This document shows positions 1 through 56,255 of a DNA stretch of 56,352 nt, piece after piece. The notes beneath the pieces are model-generated. The model worked only from the letters and a program-made list of their open reading frames with translations, did not search any database and was not told the DNA's origin. Origin of the DNA: Planctomycetota bacterium. Lineage in GTDB: Bacteria; Planctomycetota; Phycisphaerae; WQYP01. The stretch lies in contig JAJYFE010000005.1 of the NCBI GenBank assembly GCA_021785435.1, positions 1-56,352 of the forward strand, given 5' to 3'. The stretch's first letter is position 1, and the number at the start of each line of letters is the position of its first letter. The translations under genes were made by a program, and so were the position numbers.

Positions 1-1173
1 CATGTACGGTTGACGGGTCAGATTACCCGCAAATAACAGCCGGGTACCGATCTTCTTTTCATTTAAATGGTTGATCAGATCGACCCGCGTGAACGGGGCG
101 TCGTCCCGGATGGTGATGGGAAAACCAAACCAGGATGGTTGGCTCTTCGCGGTGGCCTGCGGCAGAATTAAAAATTCCTGCAAGCCGTCGAGCCGCCGCC
201 TTAAGTGCTCGAAATTGGCCTGGCGCGCCGCGCTGAAACGCGGCAGTTTATCCAGTTGGGCCAGGCCACAGGCTGCCTGCATATCCGTGATTTTCATGTT
301 GTATCCCATATGCGAGTAGATATATTTATGATCGTAGCCGAAGGGCAAATCCCCCAACTGCCAGCCAAAACGCTTTTTACAGGTATTCTCATGTCCCGGG
401 GCACAATAGCAGTCGCGGCCCCAATCCCGATAAGAGGCCAGAATAAGTTGCAGCAATGGGCTGCCGGTGAACACCGCGCCGCCTTCGCCCATGGTGATAT
501 GATGGGCGGGGTAGCAGCTTAAAGTCCCCACGTCGCCGAAACCGCCTACGGGCCGGCCGGCATAGCGGGCCCCCAGGGCGTCGCAGCAATCCTCCACCAG
601 CCACAAACGGTGGCGGCGGCAGAATTCCCCCACCGCGTCCAGGTTGCAGGGATTGCCCAACGTATGGGCCAGCATCACCGCGCGGGTATGGGGGCTTAGA
701 GCCTCGGTCAGATAACGGACGTCGATGTTGTAGGTGGGAATCTCCACATCCACAAAAACCGGCGTGGCCCCGTTCTGCATGATCGGATTGACCGTGGTGG
801 GAAAACTTGCGGCGACGGTGATGACTTCATCGCCGGGCTGGATAGCGCGCTTACCGAGTTTCGGAGAACACAGCGCGGTGAAAGCAAGTAGATTAGCCGA
901 GGATCCGGAATTGACGCTCAGCACGTATCGCGTTTGTAGAAGTTCTGCCAGCTTGTGTTCCAAAGCCGTGTTGAAACGACCGGCGGTCAACCAGCCGTCC
1001 AAAGCTGCTTCAATGATGGCGCGGGTTTCGGCCGCATCAATCACCCGGCCCGCCGGCGGGATAATCGTGACCCCCGGTTCAAAATGCTTTTCCGGGGCCG
1101 CCGCGACATATTGCTCAGCCAATTGGAGGATTTGCTGGCGTAATTCGTCCTGGCTATTTATCGCCTTGTCCAT
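1..1173 (-). CDS. rfbH: CDP-4-keto-6-deoxy-D-glucose 3-dehydrase (RfbH/DdhC); 3' end runs off the window
   Basis: Manual translation from ATG 1173: [16 protein letters not shown]...[11 protein letters not shown]...EDCCDALG...[13 protein letters not shown] (His in place of the PLP Lys, the E1 signature) and [14 protein letters not shown] (Fe-S motif). Lies downstream of rfbFG. Confidence 0.92.
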
Positions 1174-21463: not shown

Positions 21464-21493
21464 TCTGTTCCACCTGTAATGAGGGGTGGACGG
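21464..21493. repeat. 30-bp direct repeat, copy 1
   Basis: TCTGTTCCACCTGTAATGAGGGGTGGACGG, identical to 35567-35596. Confidence 0.9.
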
Positions 21494-21515
21494 CCGACGA
21501 GGGCGTCGGCTCTAC
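21493..21515 (-). repeat. GTAG-type REP (family B)
   Basis: Minus strand reads GTAGAGCCGACGCCCTCGTCGGC: GTAG tetranucleotide plus palindrome. Related copies at 28390-28413, 31719-31741, 36920-36974 and 39850-39873. Confidence 0.8.
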
Positions 21516-26967: not shown

Positions 26968-28272
26968 TCACCACGCCTCTTGTTTCGCGGCGTAGCTGGG
27001 ATTCACGATTCGTATCGGCATCATGCAGACATCAAACGGGGCGCCCAGTGTCATAATCGGAGGGGGGACAACTTGGTAGTATGGGTCGTTCATGGCCTCG
27101 TATTGCAGCTGGCTGGTATCCGTGGCGCCATTGACCGGGACGACCGGGTTACCATTGTAGTTGTGGAACGTGAAAATGTTGTCGCCGTCTTGGCCCACGT
27201 AAGGCGAAATTTCCCAGGTCACGTGATCGTCACCGAAGCCGACATTCTGGCCGTCGCCGGCGTGATTGCCGGAGTTGTAAATATAGGGGCCATAAGTATT
27301 GGCCGTCGGCAGCGTGGCGACGGCCCGCTGGTACACGCCCATGCCCGGACCGTCGCCAGTGGGTCCCCACCCCCACGGCCCGGTGCCATTCTCCGGCGAC
27401 ATGTCGCTGACCAGGGGAACTTGGGTGTTGGCGCCGTTGGTGGTCCACCACTGACCCACGGGGCCGGGGACGCCCGAACTTATGACATTCGAAGGGTACG
27501 GGAAAGCGGTGGAATAGCTTATGCCTTGGCCCTCCTTGCTGGTTACATAGCCGCCGACGGAGCTGTAGGCGCCGGAGCCGGGCACCAAGCCAAAGTTGCT
27601 GAAGTATGCGGGAACTCCCGCATTTTTATAGTATTCCTCGGATGGGCCGAACGCCAAGGGGTCCGACGGGCAGATGAACGTCGCCGGGGTGGCATAGCCC
27701 TGGAGCACCAATATCCACAAGCCCGCCAGCGTGTCGACCATGCTTCCCGGATGCGAACTCTTGTACCAATCTTGCACCACGTTGGCGGCGGCGCCGGCCT
27801 CGGTGGGGACGTAGCCATAGGCGTTGTCGGGCGCGTAGTCGACGGCGCCCCCGCCGTAAGCTCCCGTAGCCGCGGACGCATTGGCGGTCGCCGGGAACGT
27901 GCCGTAGTTGCTGTTCGCGTACGTGGTCATCGCCTGGATGATCCCGCGGATGTTGGCCATGCACACCGCCCGGTTGGCCAGTTCCCGGGCCTTGGCCAAG
28001 GCTGGTAAAAGTATAGATATCAATATAGCTATAATTGATATCACCACCAGCAGCTCGATCAGCGTGAACGCGGCGCGTTTAGTTCGCGCCGGGCGCAGGC
28101 GGGCATCGAGGGCGGCCAGGAGCGGGGCGTCGGTGTAATCGCCGGGACGCCACGCGCCTGAACCGTCCAGCCCGGCGGGCCGCAGTTCCGCCACGGCGGC
28201 TCGCCTTGTCGAGTCGCCCTCTTCGGCGACTTCGGCCGCCAGGGCCAGCAGGTTGACTTGGGAAGCACTCAT
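26968..28272 (-). CDS. prepilin-type N-terminal cleavage/methylation protein (DUF1559-like)
   Basis: [40 protein letters not shown] and an H-X9-DG-like [16 protein letters not shown]. Further in-frame starts at 28350 and 28443. Confidence 0.88.
28199..28230. repeat. repeat family A copy inside the prepilin leader coding region
   Basis: GCTCGCCTTGTCGAGTCGCCCTCTTCGGCGAC; translates as [11 protein letters not shown] on the minus strand. Confidence 0.9.
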
Positions 28273-31702: not shown

Positions 31703-31832
31703 ACCCCGTGTGACGACCAGCCGACGGGGCGTCGGCTCTACAGGGGGGGCGGCGCTACGGGGGGCTGAAGCGCGAAGTATTTTATTAAAACTGCCAAAGG
31801 CGCGAGCCGCGCCGCAAGCTTATAATTACCAT

Positions 31833-35719: not shown

Positions 35720-36225
35720 CATGATTTTGTAGGACAGTATAATTACCAGGGCATGGCCCCGCGCGCGGCTGGCCAGACGCACATGCACCGGGCGCATCTC
35801 CAAGTCCATGGTCCCGCCGTAGCGGATCTTCGATTTGCTGGTTCGGAACACCCACTCCACCATGGCCAGGTCCTTGTGGCGGGCGTGGACACTCTGCGCG
35901 TTGAGCTGGGCTGGGGTCGGATCGGTCGGGAGGACATAGCAACCGTCGCGCTTTTGCTGGTCGGCCAGTCTGGGAGTCGCTGTGGCGCCCCAAGGTCACT
36001 GCGCCGTCGCCGATCTGGGAGTCGGTACGGCGACAGCGATCGGCGACCTTGCGGATCTGACTGGCCATCGTTGCGGTGTCCTGGGTATTGCCGGCAAATA
36101 CCTCCATCGACAGCGGTTGGCGTTGGGCGTTGCACAGCAGCCCGATGACGATTTGTCGTTGGCCCTTTTTGCCGTCGCGGTTATAGCCGAAGGCGGCCAG
36201 TTTATTGCAGATCCCTTCGAGATAT
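35720..36225 (-). pseudogene. IS1634-family transposase remnant with internal deletions
   Basis: Fragments GYNRDGKKGQRQIVIGLLC...EVFAGNTQD..T and VEWVFRTSK...LEMRPVHVRLASRARGHALV lie in different frames. Confidence 0.8.
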
Positions 36226-36423
36226 ACTCAATGCGGCCTCTGACGGCACATTATGGGGAGCGAAGGCTGCGGAAACATGCTGATTTTCCGGCCATCATAC
36301 CGAATCAGATATCCCATTAACAGCCGCGTACAATAAATGTCTCATTACAGGCCAAACGGAGTATAGCTGTCCGGCAGACCTGGAGGTCTGCACCACAAGC
36401 ATTTGCCGTGGGCCTCCAGCCTG

Positions 36424-36919
36424 ATCGGGATAGGGAAGGCCGGTTGATTCCGGCGTCCCCTCCCGCCAGACCGGACGGGCGGATTTCCCGCATCCGGCTT
36501 TCCAGTCAGTGGGCCATCTTCTCGCCTTGTCGAGTCGCTCTCTTCGGCGACATGCAACCTTTCGCTCCATGCCCATGACGGCACTTCTTCGCTACTATGG
36601 TTGCCTTGACTCCTGCCGGCCGGGCCCGCCTTCGGCGCGCCAGCACTGTTGCCAACAGGTCTCATGGATTCACGGATTCCAGCCTTCCAGCCATACCGTC
36701 TCCAACCACCCTATGTCGCCGAAGAGGGCGACTCGACAAGGCGAGCTAAATCGAGTTCACCTGGGCAGGTCAGTCACTGCCCGTGTTACGGTCTGATTGT
36801 TCGTCTTCGGTTGCTTGCCACCCTGCCTCGCGGCAACGCGGTGACCTTCGACTACACGCCGGAACATCGGCGTGGGGAGGACTTCCACCTCTCCGACTCA
36901 AATCTGCTCTCCATCGCAC
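36424..36919 (-). mobile_element. ORF-less group II intron (IIB-like domain V)
   Basis: 5' GUGCG at 36919; domain III-like CAUAGUAGCGAAGAAG...GGAGCGAAAG; domain V GAAAGCCGGAUGCGGGAAAUCCGCCCGUCCGGUCUGG with AGC triad; domain VI ending CCCUAUCCCGAU at 36424; no RT ORF. Confidence 0.88.
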
Positions 36920-36974
36920 TGGAGCCGACGCCCTTGTCGGCTGGTCGCCTGATCGATAGGGGCATCGGCCCTAC
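36920..36974. repeat. REP doublet (REPIN-like) interrupted by the intron
   Basis: (G)TGGAGCCGACGCCCTTGTCGGCT ... GGGGCATCGGCCCTAC, an inverted pair of family B REPs. Confidence 0.75.
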
Positions 36975-37091
36975 ATGGCCCGGAGCCTAAGGGACGACGA
37001 TGCTGGCTGTATTTCCACGCTGGTGCTGGTAGCCCTTGTTCCGAGGCGGCGGCTGGATGAAAATAGCGGCGGTATTTTTGAGCGGAGTCGG

Positions 37092-37460
37092 ATGTACGCC
37101 ATTGAAGTCCAAACCGAGTTTCTGGCCGCGCATCAGCTTCGCCTGCTAGATGGTTCGCTGGAACCGCGGCATGAGCATCGCTGGCTGGTGCGGGCACGGA
37201 TTGAATCACCGCAACTCGACACCCTTGAAACCGTCATGGATTTTCACGTGCTCGAAGCACAGCTGCGGGCGATTGTCGCGCCGTGGCAGGGGCGGCGCCT
37301 TAATGACCTGGAGCCATTTGCCACCCAAATGAATCCTTCCGCGGAGCGCGTCGCGGAGCATATCGCATCGGTGCTGGCCCCGCAAATCCATCGCCCGGCC
37401 CGTCTGGTCTGCGTTCGGGTTACGGAAGCGTCGCATTGCCACGCCATTTTCACGCCCTGA
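37092..37460 (+). CDS. queD: 6-carboxytetrahydropterin synthase / PTPS family
   Basis: F.AAH.L, HEH.W, MDF, LNDLEPF..MNPSAE..A and V.V.E motifs. Confidence 0.8.
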   Translation: MYAIEVQTEFLAAHQLRLLDGSLEPRHEHRWLVRARIESPQLDTLETVMDFHVLEAQLRAIVAPWQGRRLNDLEPFATQMNPSAERVAEHIASVLAPQIHRPARLVCVRVTEASHCHAIFTP

Positions 37461-37582: not shown

Positions 37583-37686
37583 GCTCGCCTTGTCGAGTCG
37601 CCCTCTTCGGCGACCAGTGGGCGGGCAGGTCGCCGGGGGGCGACTCGCAGACTGGCGAGCTTTGTCGAGTCGCCTCCTTCGGCGAC
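37583..37686. repeat. composite of repeat family A hairpins
   Basis: Three GTCGCC-N-GGCGAC hairpins. A reverse-orientation homologue lies at about 55699-55757 and a partial one at 10333-10401. Confidence 0.85.
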
Positions 37687-37873: not shown

Positions 37874-38881
37874 CTATGGCATATATAAATATTCCATGCG
37901 CGGACGGGCCAGGTCCAGCAGAAGGCGGCGCGAAATCTGCAGGCGCGGCGCCGGTAGGACACTGCGCACATTCAGCAGGTTTAGTAAACCAGGCGCCGCT
38001 TTCAGCTCCACGATCGTCGGATGCGCGATCCTGGCCAGCTTCGCGGCCGCCTGACAGGCTGCCGCCAGATACCCGATATGATCCACCAGGCCTTGGCGCA
38101 GAGCCGCTCGAGCGGTGAAAATTTTGCCATTGGCCACCTGGGCTAGCGGCGCCTTTAAGCGTGTACCGCGCCCCCGCTGGACGATGCTTTCGAAGCGCGC
38201 ATCATCGACATCCAGCAGATGTTGCAGATAGGCTTTCACCGGGGGGGTGAATTCGGAGAACGGCGACCCCGCCTCCTTCCATACGGCGGCCTTGCTGGTA
38301 AGGAATTCCGGTTTAACTCCGATTTTGTTAAGCAGCCCCGTCATTTGAAAGCCCGGCATCATCACCCCAATGCTGCCGGTAATGGTGGTCGGTTCCGCGT
38401 AAATTTGCTGGCTGGCCATGGAAATGTAGTATGCCCCACTGGCCGCCAATGCGCCCATGCTCACCACAATGGGTTTGGCGCCGCGCAGTTTGCGAAGGGC
38501 GTGGTAGCAGTCATCCGCCGCCGTGACGCCTCCGCCCGGCGAATCCACCCGCAGCACCAGAGCCTTGATGGCCGCGTCGTGTCGGATGGTGCGCAGATCC
38601 ACCCGCAGTTGTTGGACCGTCGCCGAGCTGATTAAACCGGAAATGGGAATGATGGCAACCTTGTTGGGCGTGCCATGCCGGATCACCACTTGCCGCACGC
38701 GCCCCGGTGCGAAGCCACCGGTCAAAATGGCCATCCCACTCAACGCCGCGATTAGAATGCCGTTGAGCACCAGCGAAACCAGAAGCACCAGGTAAAACAC
38801 CACGCGAAAAAAAATTCTTCCCGTCCGCGGCGGCGGATTTTGATATACCATCACCGGATTGGAACCGCCGGCTTGAGTCAT
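37874..38881 (-). CDS. sppA: signal peptide peptidase SppA (S49)
   Basis: LRVDSPGG, SMGALAASGAYYI, TITGSIGV and GLVD.IG motifs. Confidence 0.93.
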   Translation of the reverse strand: MTQAGGSNPVMVYQNPPPRTGRIFFRVVFYLVLLVSLVLNGILIAALSGMAILTGGFAPGRVRQVVIRHGTPNKVAIIPISGLISSATVQQLRVDLRTIRHDAAIKALVLRVDSPGGGVTAADDCYHALRKLRGAKPIVVSMGALAASGAYYISMASQQIYAEPTTITGSIGVMMPGFQMTGLLNKIGVKPEFLTSKAAVWKEAGSPFSEFTPPVKAYLQHLLDVDDARFESIVQRGRGTRLKAPLAQVANGKIFTARAALRQGLVDHIGYLAAACQAAAKLARIAHPTIVELKAAPGLLNLLNVRSVLPAPRLQISRRLLLDLARPRMEYLYMP

Positions 38882-55995: not shown

Positions 55996-56255
55996 GCTCG
56001 CCTTGTCGAGTCGCCTTCTTCGGCGACCGGTGCCACAATCCGTCAAGATCTCCGCGCCGTGCGAAGATTTTGGTTCGGTAGGAAACTTTGGTTGCCCGGC
56101 GGCCCCGACACCCCCGGCAAGGTCTCCGAAGGCGACTCCTCGATCCACCGAGGGTCGCCGGGGCGACTGAACCGATCCGCCTCCGTGCGGACCGGGGGAT
56201 ATATGTTTGGTTGCGGCCCGCAGGTCGCCGAAGAAGGCGACTCGACAAGGCGAGC
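55996..56255. repeat. inverted pair of family A repeats enclosing copy 2 of the ~140-nt structured repeat
   Basis: GCTCGCCTTGTCGAGTCGCCTTCTTCGGCGAC (55996-56027) and its exact reverse complement (56224-56255). Confidence 0.85.

Follow-up and report, generated by a model that had tools for sequence, protein, structure and literature searches.

A probable relic of a IIC-like group II intron lineage that used REP hairpins as insertion targets in a Planctomycetota genome

Introduction

Group II introns of class IIC target terminator motifs and, in a smaller fraction, attC sites, according to an excerpt of PMC4424553. The same excerpt describes introns without an open reading frame (ORF) as rare in bacteria, and as nearly always located in genomes that also contain related introns. 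With regard to REP elements, a table in Tobes and Pareja (2006; PMC1525189) lists a group II intron of Pseudomonas putida KT2440 as REP-associated in two of nine copies. Within the limited full-text corpus that we searched for group II introns in connection with REPs or RAYTs, this table entry was the only record found.

Here we analyze an intron located at a REP in the genome assembly of a Planctomycetota bacterium. The whole stretch of DNA under analysis, 56,352 nt, is referred to as the window, and the intron within it as the window intron. A preliminary description of the locus had proposed a non-autonomous ORF-less intron with a IIB-like domain V that homes into REPs and would be mobilized in trans. 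The window intron is compared below with its siblings in the same genome, with full-length homologues in related genomes, and with the REP families into which the copies are inserted.

Results

An ORF-less group II intron in the head of a REP

As read directly from the sequence, the window intron is a 496-nt segment of contig C209 at 36424-36919(-) that contains no ORF. Its ends, GUGCG and ..CCCGAU (an AU end, at 36424), agree with the group II consensus of GUGYG at the 5' end and AY at the 3' end (Table 1). The Rfam model for domains V and VI, RF00029, matches 36424-36502(-) (41.6 bits, gathering score 40, E 7.9e-05), and this is the sole gathering-level Rfam match in the 56-kb window. The match spans model positions 1-77. 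It includes the AGC triad and the two-nt bulge of domain V, and domain VI has its bulged A; the Rfam alignment flags one pair of the basal helix as non-standard. The 5' flank reads AGCCGAC-AAGGGC-GTCGGCT-CCA and the 3' flank begins with CAGG, so that deletion of the intron would generate G|TGG followed by the hairpin of a REP family, REP1, on the plus strand.

A PTPS-family ORF is listed at 36975-37460(+), and the intron lies upstream of it in antisense orientation. The listed start codon of this ORF is directly adjacent to the REP doublet, and the Pfam domain does not begin until residue 43, so that translation probably initiates farther downstream. A repeat of ~150-200 bp with lower G+C (36223-36370, and about 36150-36423) adjoins the REP2 arm beyond the 3' end of the intron. 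It has matches in 18 other contigs of this genome, in about 15 of which the match covers most of the repeat, and about 30 matches in the same-genus genome G001; Rfam gave no match for it at 36223-36370.

Table 1. Features of the window intron and its flanks, with the types and insertion sites of its sibling copies
Feature	Location	Strand	Basis or description
Intron relic, ORF-less, internally deleted, 496 nt	36424..36919	(-)	Rfam domains V/VI and alignment blocks at intron 1-171, 202-359, 399-496
5' end GUGCG	36915..36919	(-)	direct read; identical 5' end at 30 junctions of relatives
5' exon: REP1 hairpin AGCCGAC-N6-GTCGGCT, tail CCA	36920..36942	(-)	direct read and REP1 matches
Partner REP, GTAG-GGCCGATG type, in inverted doublet with REP1	36951..36974	(-)	direct read; doublet layout at many REP1 loci
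3' exon: C, then spacer and right arm (GTGGTGCAG...) of a REP2 doublet without left arm	36374..36423	(-)	REP2 match 36374-36396
Proximal domain I (intron 1-171)	36749..36919	(-)	pairwise alignment to G024 homologue
REP3 copy replacing the distal domain I arm	36715..36746	(-)	32-nt match to many genome loci
Remainder of domain I (3' side) and domains II-III	36561..36718	(-)	homologue 244-398, 69-86% identity; compensatory pairs in consensus structure
UGGAG, earlier EBS1 candidate	36700..36704	(-)	A1 columns 262-266, identical in 8/8 homologues, paired with columns 144-148
Second REP3 copy, in opposite orientation, where the ORF of domain IV was deleted	36521..36554	(-)	intron 366-399; predicted to pair with first copy
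Domains V and VI	36424..36502	(-)	RF00029, 41.6 bits vs 52.5 to 56.1 in siblings C86 and C109
Alignment block 1	intron 1-171		homologue 1-148
Alignment block 2	intron 202-359		homologue 244-398
Alignment block 3	intron 399-496		homologue 1786-1884
5'-truncated copies	C86, C172, C103		
Internally deleted copies	C100, C109 (253 nt)		
Copy with 5' end, ORF piece and REP3	C175		domains V and VI absent
Mini form, 170 nt	C193		
Copies with first ~110 nt only	C9, C50		
Eleventh fragment	C218:1707-1803		domain I segment only
Insertion after REP1 hairpin + CCA	C209, C175		GGCTCCA|
Insertion after REP1 hairpin + CTA	C9		GGCTCTA|; first base of intron reads C
Insertion after REP2 hairpin + ACCA	C109		CTGCACCA|
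Insertion after REP2 hairpin + ACCG	C193, C50		CTGCACCG|
Insertion after unrelated hairpin + TA	C100		

REP families and a RAYT gene

In the genome, REP1 has 31 core loci and 28 strict matches, the partner type of REP1 has 40 matches, REP2 has 27, and a third family, REP3, has 84 strict matches. REP1 and REP2 conform to what is expected of REPs: each is a short imperfect palindrome with a GTAG or GTGG head, present in many copies and arranged in inverted doublets. REP3 has the form GTCGCC, six loop bases, GGCGAC and then TCGACAA; copies are located in the window at 28206-28230, 37590-37614, 37662-37686, 56003-56027 and 56224-56248. Two intact REPs had been cited in the preliminary description, and both are confirmed: 31719-31741 is a GTAG-type REP1, and 21493-21515 is a variant with one arm reading GGCCGAC.

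An ORF at C225:51288-51836(-) matches NF047646 (NCBIfam 'REP-associated tyrosine transposase') with 81.1 bits against a cut-off of 80, and REP1 cores are located on both sides of it, at C225 51196-51215 and 51911-51930, about 75-90 nt away. This arrangement bears out the proposed link between the REPs and a RAYT. It supports REP1 as a RAYT-associated REP family, REP1 being the only family seen to flank the gene. A second, weak Y1_Tnp match lies near C225:39178-39387, with REP1 cores at 38837 and 39656; in the whole genome there are 12 Y1_Tnp candidates, four of which score above the cut-off.

Insertion often occurs a few nucleotides after a hairpin

Distinct 5' junctions of the intron family were collected, 30 from related genomes and seven from this genome; 13 motif-only 'junctions' that a lax motif scan returned in this genome lacked BLAST support and were for that reason left out of the counts. 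A hairpin was scored when its stem comprised 6 bp or more and its loop 3-8 nt, and when it ended 2-5 nt before the junction. Hairpins so defined precede 18 of the 30 junctions in relatives, not all of which are independent because some are orthologous sites (L084/L101, L097/L106), and six of the seven in this genome, as compared with 1486 of 20,000 random genome positions (7.4%). The last four bases of the exon are GCTA at 18 of the 30 junctions in relatives.

Six of the seven junctions in this genome are located 3-4 nt after a REP1 or REP2 hairpin (Table 1). The typical junction is ..CCA|C, inside the GTGG/GTAG head, and it recurs in two REP families; relatives without these REPs have the intron at the same distance after unrelated hairpins. 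Seven copies retain a 3' end, and in six of them C is the first base of the 3' exon. C193 and C50 have their upstream flank in common and are regarded as one insertion event, later duplicated. Among REP1 sites, uninterrupted tails read CTAC in 30 cases and CCAC in one, as against two of three intron-bearing sites that end in CCA, an enrichment of the CCAC type that is significant but based on small numbers (Fisher p 0.014). The association of the family's insertion sites with REPs is non-random and exceeds chance. With this fixed position, shared by six of seven junctions, the earlier account of an ORF-less group II intron whose family inserts in the GTRG head of REPs is upheld.

At one locus in a relative (L086, G052:C253; locus position 671), an intron copy directly follows the 3' end of another in tandem; the target hairpin in this case was apparently the domain VI stem-loop.

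The flanks of the window intron are chimeric

The 3' exon of the window intron consists of C, a 26-nt spacer and GTGGTGCAG..., which correspond to the inner spacer and right arm of a REP2 doublet. Eight such spacers are present in the genome. Six follow a REP2 left arm ending in CACCAC and one follows unrelated sequence; the remaining one is that of the window, where the 3' end of the intron is found exactly where CACCA would end. The window intron thus has a REP1 half-site on its 5' side and a REP2 half-site on its 3' side. Copy C109 is its mirror image: the 5' flank is REP2, and the 3' flank is the sequence that follows the REP1 hairpin and CTAC in C173 and C225, both of the paralogues that reach the junction. 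The simplest reading is that homologous recombination between intron copies residing in REP1 and REP2 sites gave rise to these flanks. The REP that had been described as restored by removal of the intron is real with respect to the literal G|TGG join and the REP1 hairpin, but on the 3' side it continues into REP2-doublet sequence (spacer and right arm) and not into REP1 context, which makes the restored element a hybrid of two REP families.

Full-length homologues place the lineage near class IIC

Used as a query, the window intron matches 10 of 41 genomes at E up to 1e-8 (its own genome included). All ten are from the same family, and no match was obtained in 16 genomes that represent other families of the class. 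A query consisting of the 5' part of a homologue matches 16 of 45 genomes of the order. Complete introns of 1884 nt are present in G024:C88 and G020:C110. Both share the 5' end of the window intron and comprise all six domains, with an ORF located in domain IV; the ribozyme outside the ORF is about 495 nt in length. The ORF product is 462 aa in length, and in G024 the reverse transcriptase (RT) consists of RVT_1 and GIIM only; a Pfam search of it detected no En (HNH) domain.

Among solved structures, the homologue RT matches the GsI-IIC RT (6ar1) with 229 bits, a group II intron RT/maturase (7uim) with 228.8 bits, 'retron-type' RT fragments (5hhj and 5hhl) with 198.8 and 196.9 bits, a maturase RT (6me0) with 183.5 bits and LtrA with 157.7 bits. 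We take 7uim, 5hhj and 5hhl to represent IIC introns of gut Firmicutes, and 6me0 presumably represents a IIB/CL intron. By these scores the homologue RT appears nearest to solved IIC RTs; since none of the matched structures is labeled class D, E or F, the class label stops at IIC-like. Classification by Rfam, which had been recommended, succeeded for domains V and VI, where RF00029 exceeds its gathering score, but not for class: models of domains I-IV gave sub-threshold matches only (RF02003, 22.4 bits for the window intron; RF02001, 30.2 bits against 32 for G020), which carry no class label. An En-less RT together with hairpin targets and a short IBS1 would make the lineage IIC-like, and the IIB-like label was not borne out.

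A probable EBS1 loop in the distal arm of domain I

Eight homologues were aligned (alignment A1), from which RNAalifold predicts 116 base pairs, 38 of them with compensatory changes. In the consensus structure domain I contains a distal arm of three hairpins, the first of which (A1 columns 165-192) has an 11-nt loop. The central five bases of this loop are UAGCC or UAGCG in introns whose exons end in GGCUA. In G006 they are CAGCC, and the exons end in GCUG in two of four cases. In copy C86 the loop reads UGGAG, which complements the REP1 tail CUCCA without mismatch and can pair with the common CUCUA via one G-U. On the strength of its position, the RNAalifold hairpin and this complementarity, the loop is probably EBS1. 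Exon and loop differ by one mismatch in G020, G051 and G058, and C218, the other surviving arm in this genome, reads UAGUG; for these reasons the assignment stays at probable and the REP match at suggestive. The C86 loop, from a single decayed fragment, is suggestive of tuning to the REP1 tail. When further EBS1-bearing copies were sought in 45 family genomes, none was detected in this genome beyond C86 and C218.

EBS1 had previously been placed at the UGGAG of 36700-36704. The pentamer is indeed present there and is complementary to the 5' exon end CUCCA, but it does not vary among the eight homologues, the exons of which end in GCUA, GCCA, GCCG and, in one tandem copy, CUAU, and RNAalifold pairs it with columns 144-148. 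It is better modeled as a structural motif of domain I.

The window intron has lost the ORF and the distal arm of domain I

Global alignment of the window intron to the 1884-nt homologue from G024 yields three matching blocks (Table 1). Homologue positions from about 149 to 243, ~95 nt of domain I that comprise the whole three-hairpin arm with the probable EBS1, are missing, as are positions from about 410 to 1785, which contain the ORF. A genus-specific 25-nt hairpin insertion is found at intron 132-156 and also in copy C100. Segment 36561-36610 had been considered as domain IVa with the RT start codon; this reading was dropped because in full-length homologues domain III is located there and the ORF starts later.

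The two REP3 copies within the intron are predicted to pair over about 30 bp in both the minimum-energy and the centroid folds. The closing helix of domain I does not form in these folds and is replaced by the REP3 helix. The high predicted stability of the RNA (z -6.64) is attributable to the inverted REP3 pair. Judging from these models, the RNA would be able neither to bind its 5' exon nor to fold correctly, and splicing and mobility would both be lost. Alignment to the homologues shows an incomplete ribozyme in which domain I is partial and the probable EBS1 hairpin is absent. Of the intron proposed earlier, what stands is an ORF-less group II derivative, with ~95 nt missing from domain I and two REP3 copies inside. 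Most likely the window intron is a fossil that has lost both the enzyme gene and the target-recognizing RNA arm.

Sibling copies are ORF-less and each is deleted differently

The family in this genome comprises about 11 ORF-less copies, each with different deletions. With a minimum match of 50 nt, BLAST of the 496 nt against the assembly returned ten contigs, and the window copy is the longest of the family in the assembly. The Rfam domain V model gives 10 matches in the genome at E up to 1, seven of them above the cut-off, and five of these seven belong to this family. Mini derivatives of 170-253 nt (C193:6569-6738, C109:1379-1631 and, in G001, C57, locus L051) retain ~100 nt of the 5' end joined to domains V/VI.

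One RT/maturase gene is present in the assembly, at C130. It is 35% identical to the lineage RT, and its intron belongs to another RNA lineage (RF01999, 88 bits). Besides C130, tblastn of the lineage RT against the assembly recovered only a 23-residue remnant in C103 and no lineage RT; the assembly (4.4 Mb in 234 contigs) is 93.8% complete, and an intact or RT-bearing copy could be unassembled. The check suggested in the preliminary description, whether other copies share the REP junction, gave REP hairpins at six of the seven junctions in this genome and no RT-encoding copy of the lineage in the assembly. The C130 element itself (C130:15652-about 17549(-)) appears to be an intact RT-encoding intron, with a domain V of 53.3 bits and an open RT frame containing a YADD motif; no obvious hairpin precedes its insertion site. 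A second 3' end is located at a contig start (C17:1-103).

The junction of REP3 with the end of the ORF, upstream of domain V, is identical in C209, C86, C100, C109, C172 and C103, and in C175 up to its break, a count that includes every copy keeping the sequence between the ORF deletion and domain V. Further upstream, domain III is joined to REP3 in both C209 and C86, and an RT-0 piece is joined to REP3 in C100, C109 and C175. Because these upstream breakpoints recur at more than one locus, deleted forms have spread between loci. Without domains II-III or the EBS1 arm, these exact forms are unlikely to have reverse spliced. They could equally well have spread by gene conversion or recombination between copies, for which the flanks provide evidence. 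At least five end points of deletions or truncations coincide with REP3 boundaries (C86, C218, C172, C103 and the window intron), which suggests that REP3 hairpins may promote rearrangement.

A search of the same-genus genome G001 (69% complete) for an orthologous empty site returned repeats only and no syntenic locus. No conserved counterpart of the window form was found, G001 containing fragments only. Among the sequencing runs listed as containing this DNA, those of DNA are metagenomes and none is of RNA. Metagenome contigs of four runs compared with 36000-37400 gave short, repeat-dominated pieces, none of which spans that whole interval or shows an empty site; one joint among them, from 36479 to 36810, resembles another locus of the mini-derivative type.

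Discussion

The combined evidence makes it highly probable that the window intron is a non-functional relic of a IIC-like lineage that used REP hairpins as targets and subsequently decayed. An intron of this kind, with an RT that lacks an endonuclease domain, would require a DNA target composed of a stem-loop and a 4-5-nt IBS1. The ancestral lineage would have adopted REP hairpins as its stem-loops in at least two families, REP1 and REP2. The target strands of both end in ..CCAC or ..CUAC; insertion between CCA and C would fall inside the GTGG/GTAG head, and the probable EBS1 loop, UGGAG in the one sibling that keeps this version, would match the REP1 tail. Copies would then have lost the RT ORF, acquired varied internal deletions, many of which end at REP3, and recombined with one another, so that the window copy now lies between REP1 on its 5' side and a REP2 doublet on its 3' side. 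The evidence supports REP targeting by the family but not current mobility.

A broader proposal can be put forward only tentatively, and we are inclined to doubt it as a whole. In this proposal the IIC-like lineage would have re-tuned EBS1 to UGGAG and homed into the conserved head and tail of RAYT-type REPs, with REP doublets providing a multicopy safe harbor. ORF-less derivatives would have spread in trans before they decayed, and the intron would compete with the RAYT, or disable it, at each REP that it splits. Mobilization in trans, which the preliminary description had also invoked, is unlikely for the window copy in any case because the arm with the probable EBS1 has been deleted.

That description amounted to an active, non-autonomous intron in which the UGGAG of 36700-36704 is EBS1 for CUCCA and the element is moved in trans into REPs. 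The complementarity to the 5' exon end is compatible with such activity, and so are domains V and VI that still exceed the Rfam threshold, an RT-encoding intron at C130, and deletion junctions common to several loci, which show that ORF-less forms spread. Nevertheless we regard activity as very unlikely. The pentamer is invariant in homologues with differing exon ends and is predicted to be paired; the three-hairpin arm is missing; the ~30-bp REP3 helix is predicted to take the place of the domain I closing helix; the C130 RT is only 35% identical and belongs to another RNA lineage; and the flanks are chimeric.

It is similarly improbable that events occurred in the reverse order, with REPs or REP doublets inserting or recombining beside existing intron ends and the intron never targeting REPs. 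REPs are mobile through RAYTs, a RAYT gene is present, REP3 copies have clearly entered or rearranged intron copies, and the flanks of C209 and C109 are recombinant, all of which would fit. However, two unrelated REP families are split at an identical nucleotide (CCA|) in loci with differing flanks, and relatives lacking these REPs carry insertions at the same distance from unrelated hairpins; the complementarity of the C86 loop to the REP1 tail and the excess of the rare CCAC variant among occupied REP1 sites also argue for targeting by the intron. Retention of the element as a structured non-coding RNA or regulatory element co-opted by the host has hardly any probability, since its predicted stability and its place antisense to and upstream of the PTPS-family gene are outweighed by the different deletions in each of the ~11 copies and by the failure to find the window form conserved, with only fragments in G001.

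It is by hairpin shape that IIC introns are known to select terminators and attC sites. With a lineage settled on REP hairpins and a matching EBS1, REPs would constitute a third class of hairpin target and would link retrohoming introns to the RAYT/REP system, the two being otherwise separate mobile systems. In addition, the locus preserves in condensed form the death of bacterial group II introns, through loss of the ORF, deletions that end in repeats, and recombination that reshuffles the flanks. For annotation, it follows that domain V matches in genomes such as this one should not be read as active introns.

Among the closest described parallels are the IIC introns that insert at intrinsic terminators, exemplified by B.h.I1 in the excerpt of PMC4424553. 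Those introns and the present lineage have in common an En-less RT, a short IBS1, insertion a few nt after a GC-rich hairpin and a small ribozyme. Their targets, as described there, are terminators, whereas the targets here are REP hairpins of RAYT-type families, and the window copy is ORF-less with a partial domain I. The IIC-attC introns of integrons, as portrayed in part of PMC3001079, are likewise a IIC sub-lineage specialized on one hairpin family used by another enzyme. In their case the pair is attC and the integrase, and the introns are intact and encode an RT; here it is REP and RAYT. Several ORF-less copies per genome are also known from Thermosynechococcus, where an excerpt of PMC2882425 describes ORF-less introns that are acted on in trans. 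There the ribozyme of the ORF-less copies is complete and RTs related to them occur, in contrast to this genome, in which no complete copy and no lineage RT were found.

With respect to REPs, the P. putida KT2440 record (PMC1525189) is alike in that intron copies occur at REPs; the table entry itself is silent on the position of the junction, on an EBS1 match and on ORF-less derivatives. In the same part of that source, ISPpu9, ISPpu10, ISPa11 and IS1397 likewise exploit REPs as abundant safe sites, but these elements are DNA transposases, in contrast to retrohoming by a ribozyme and RT guided by base pairing.
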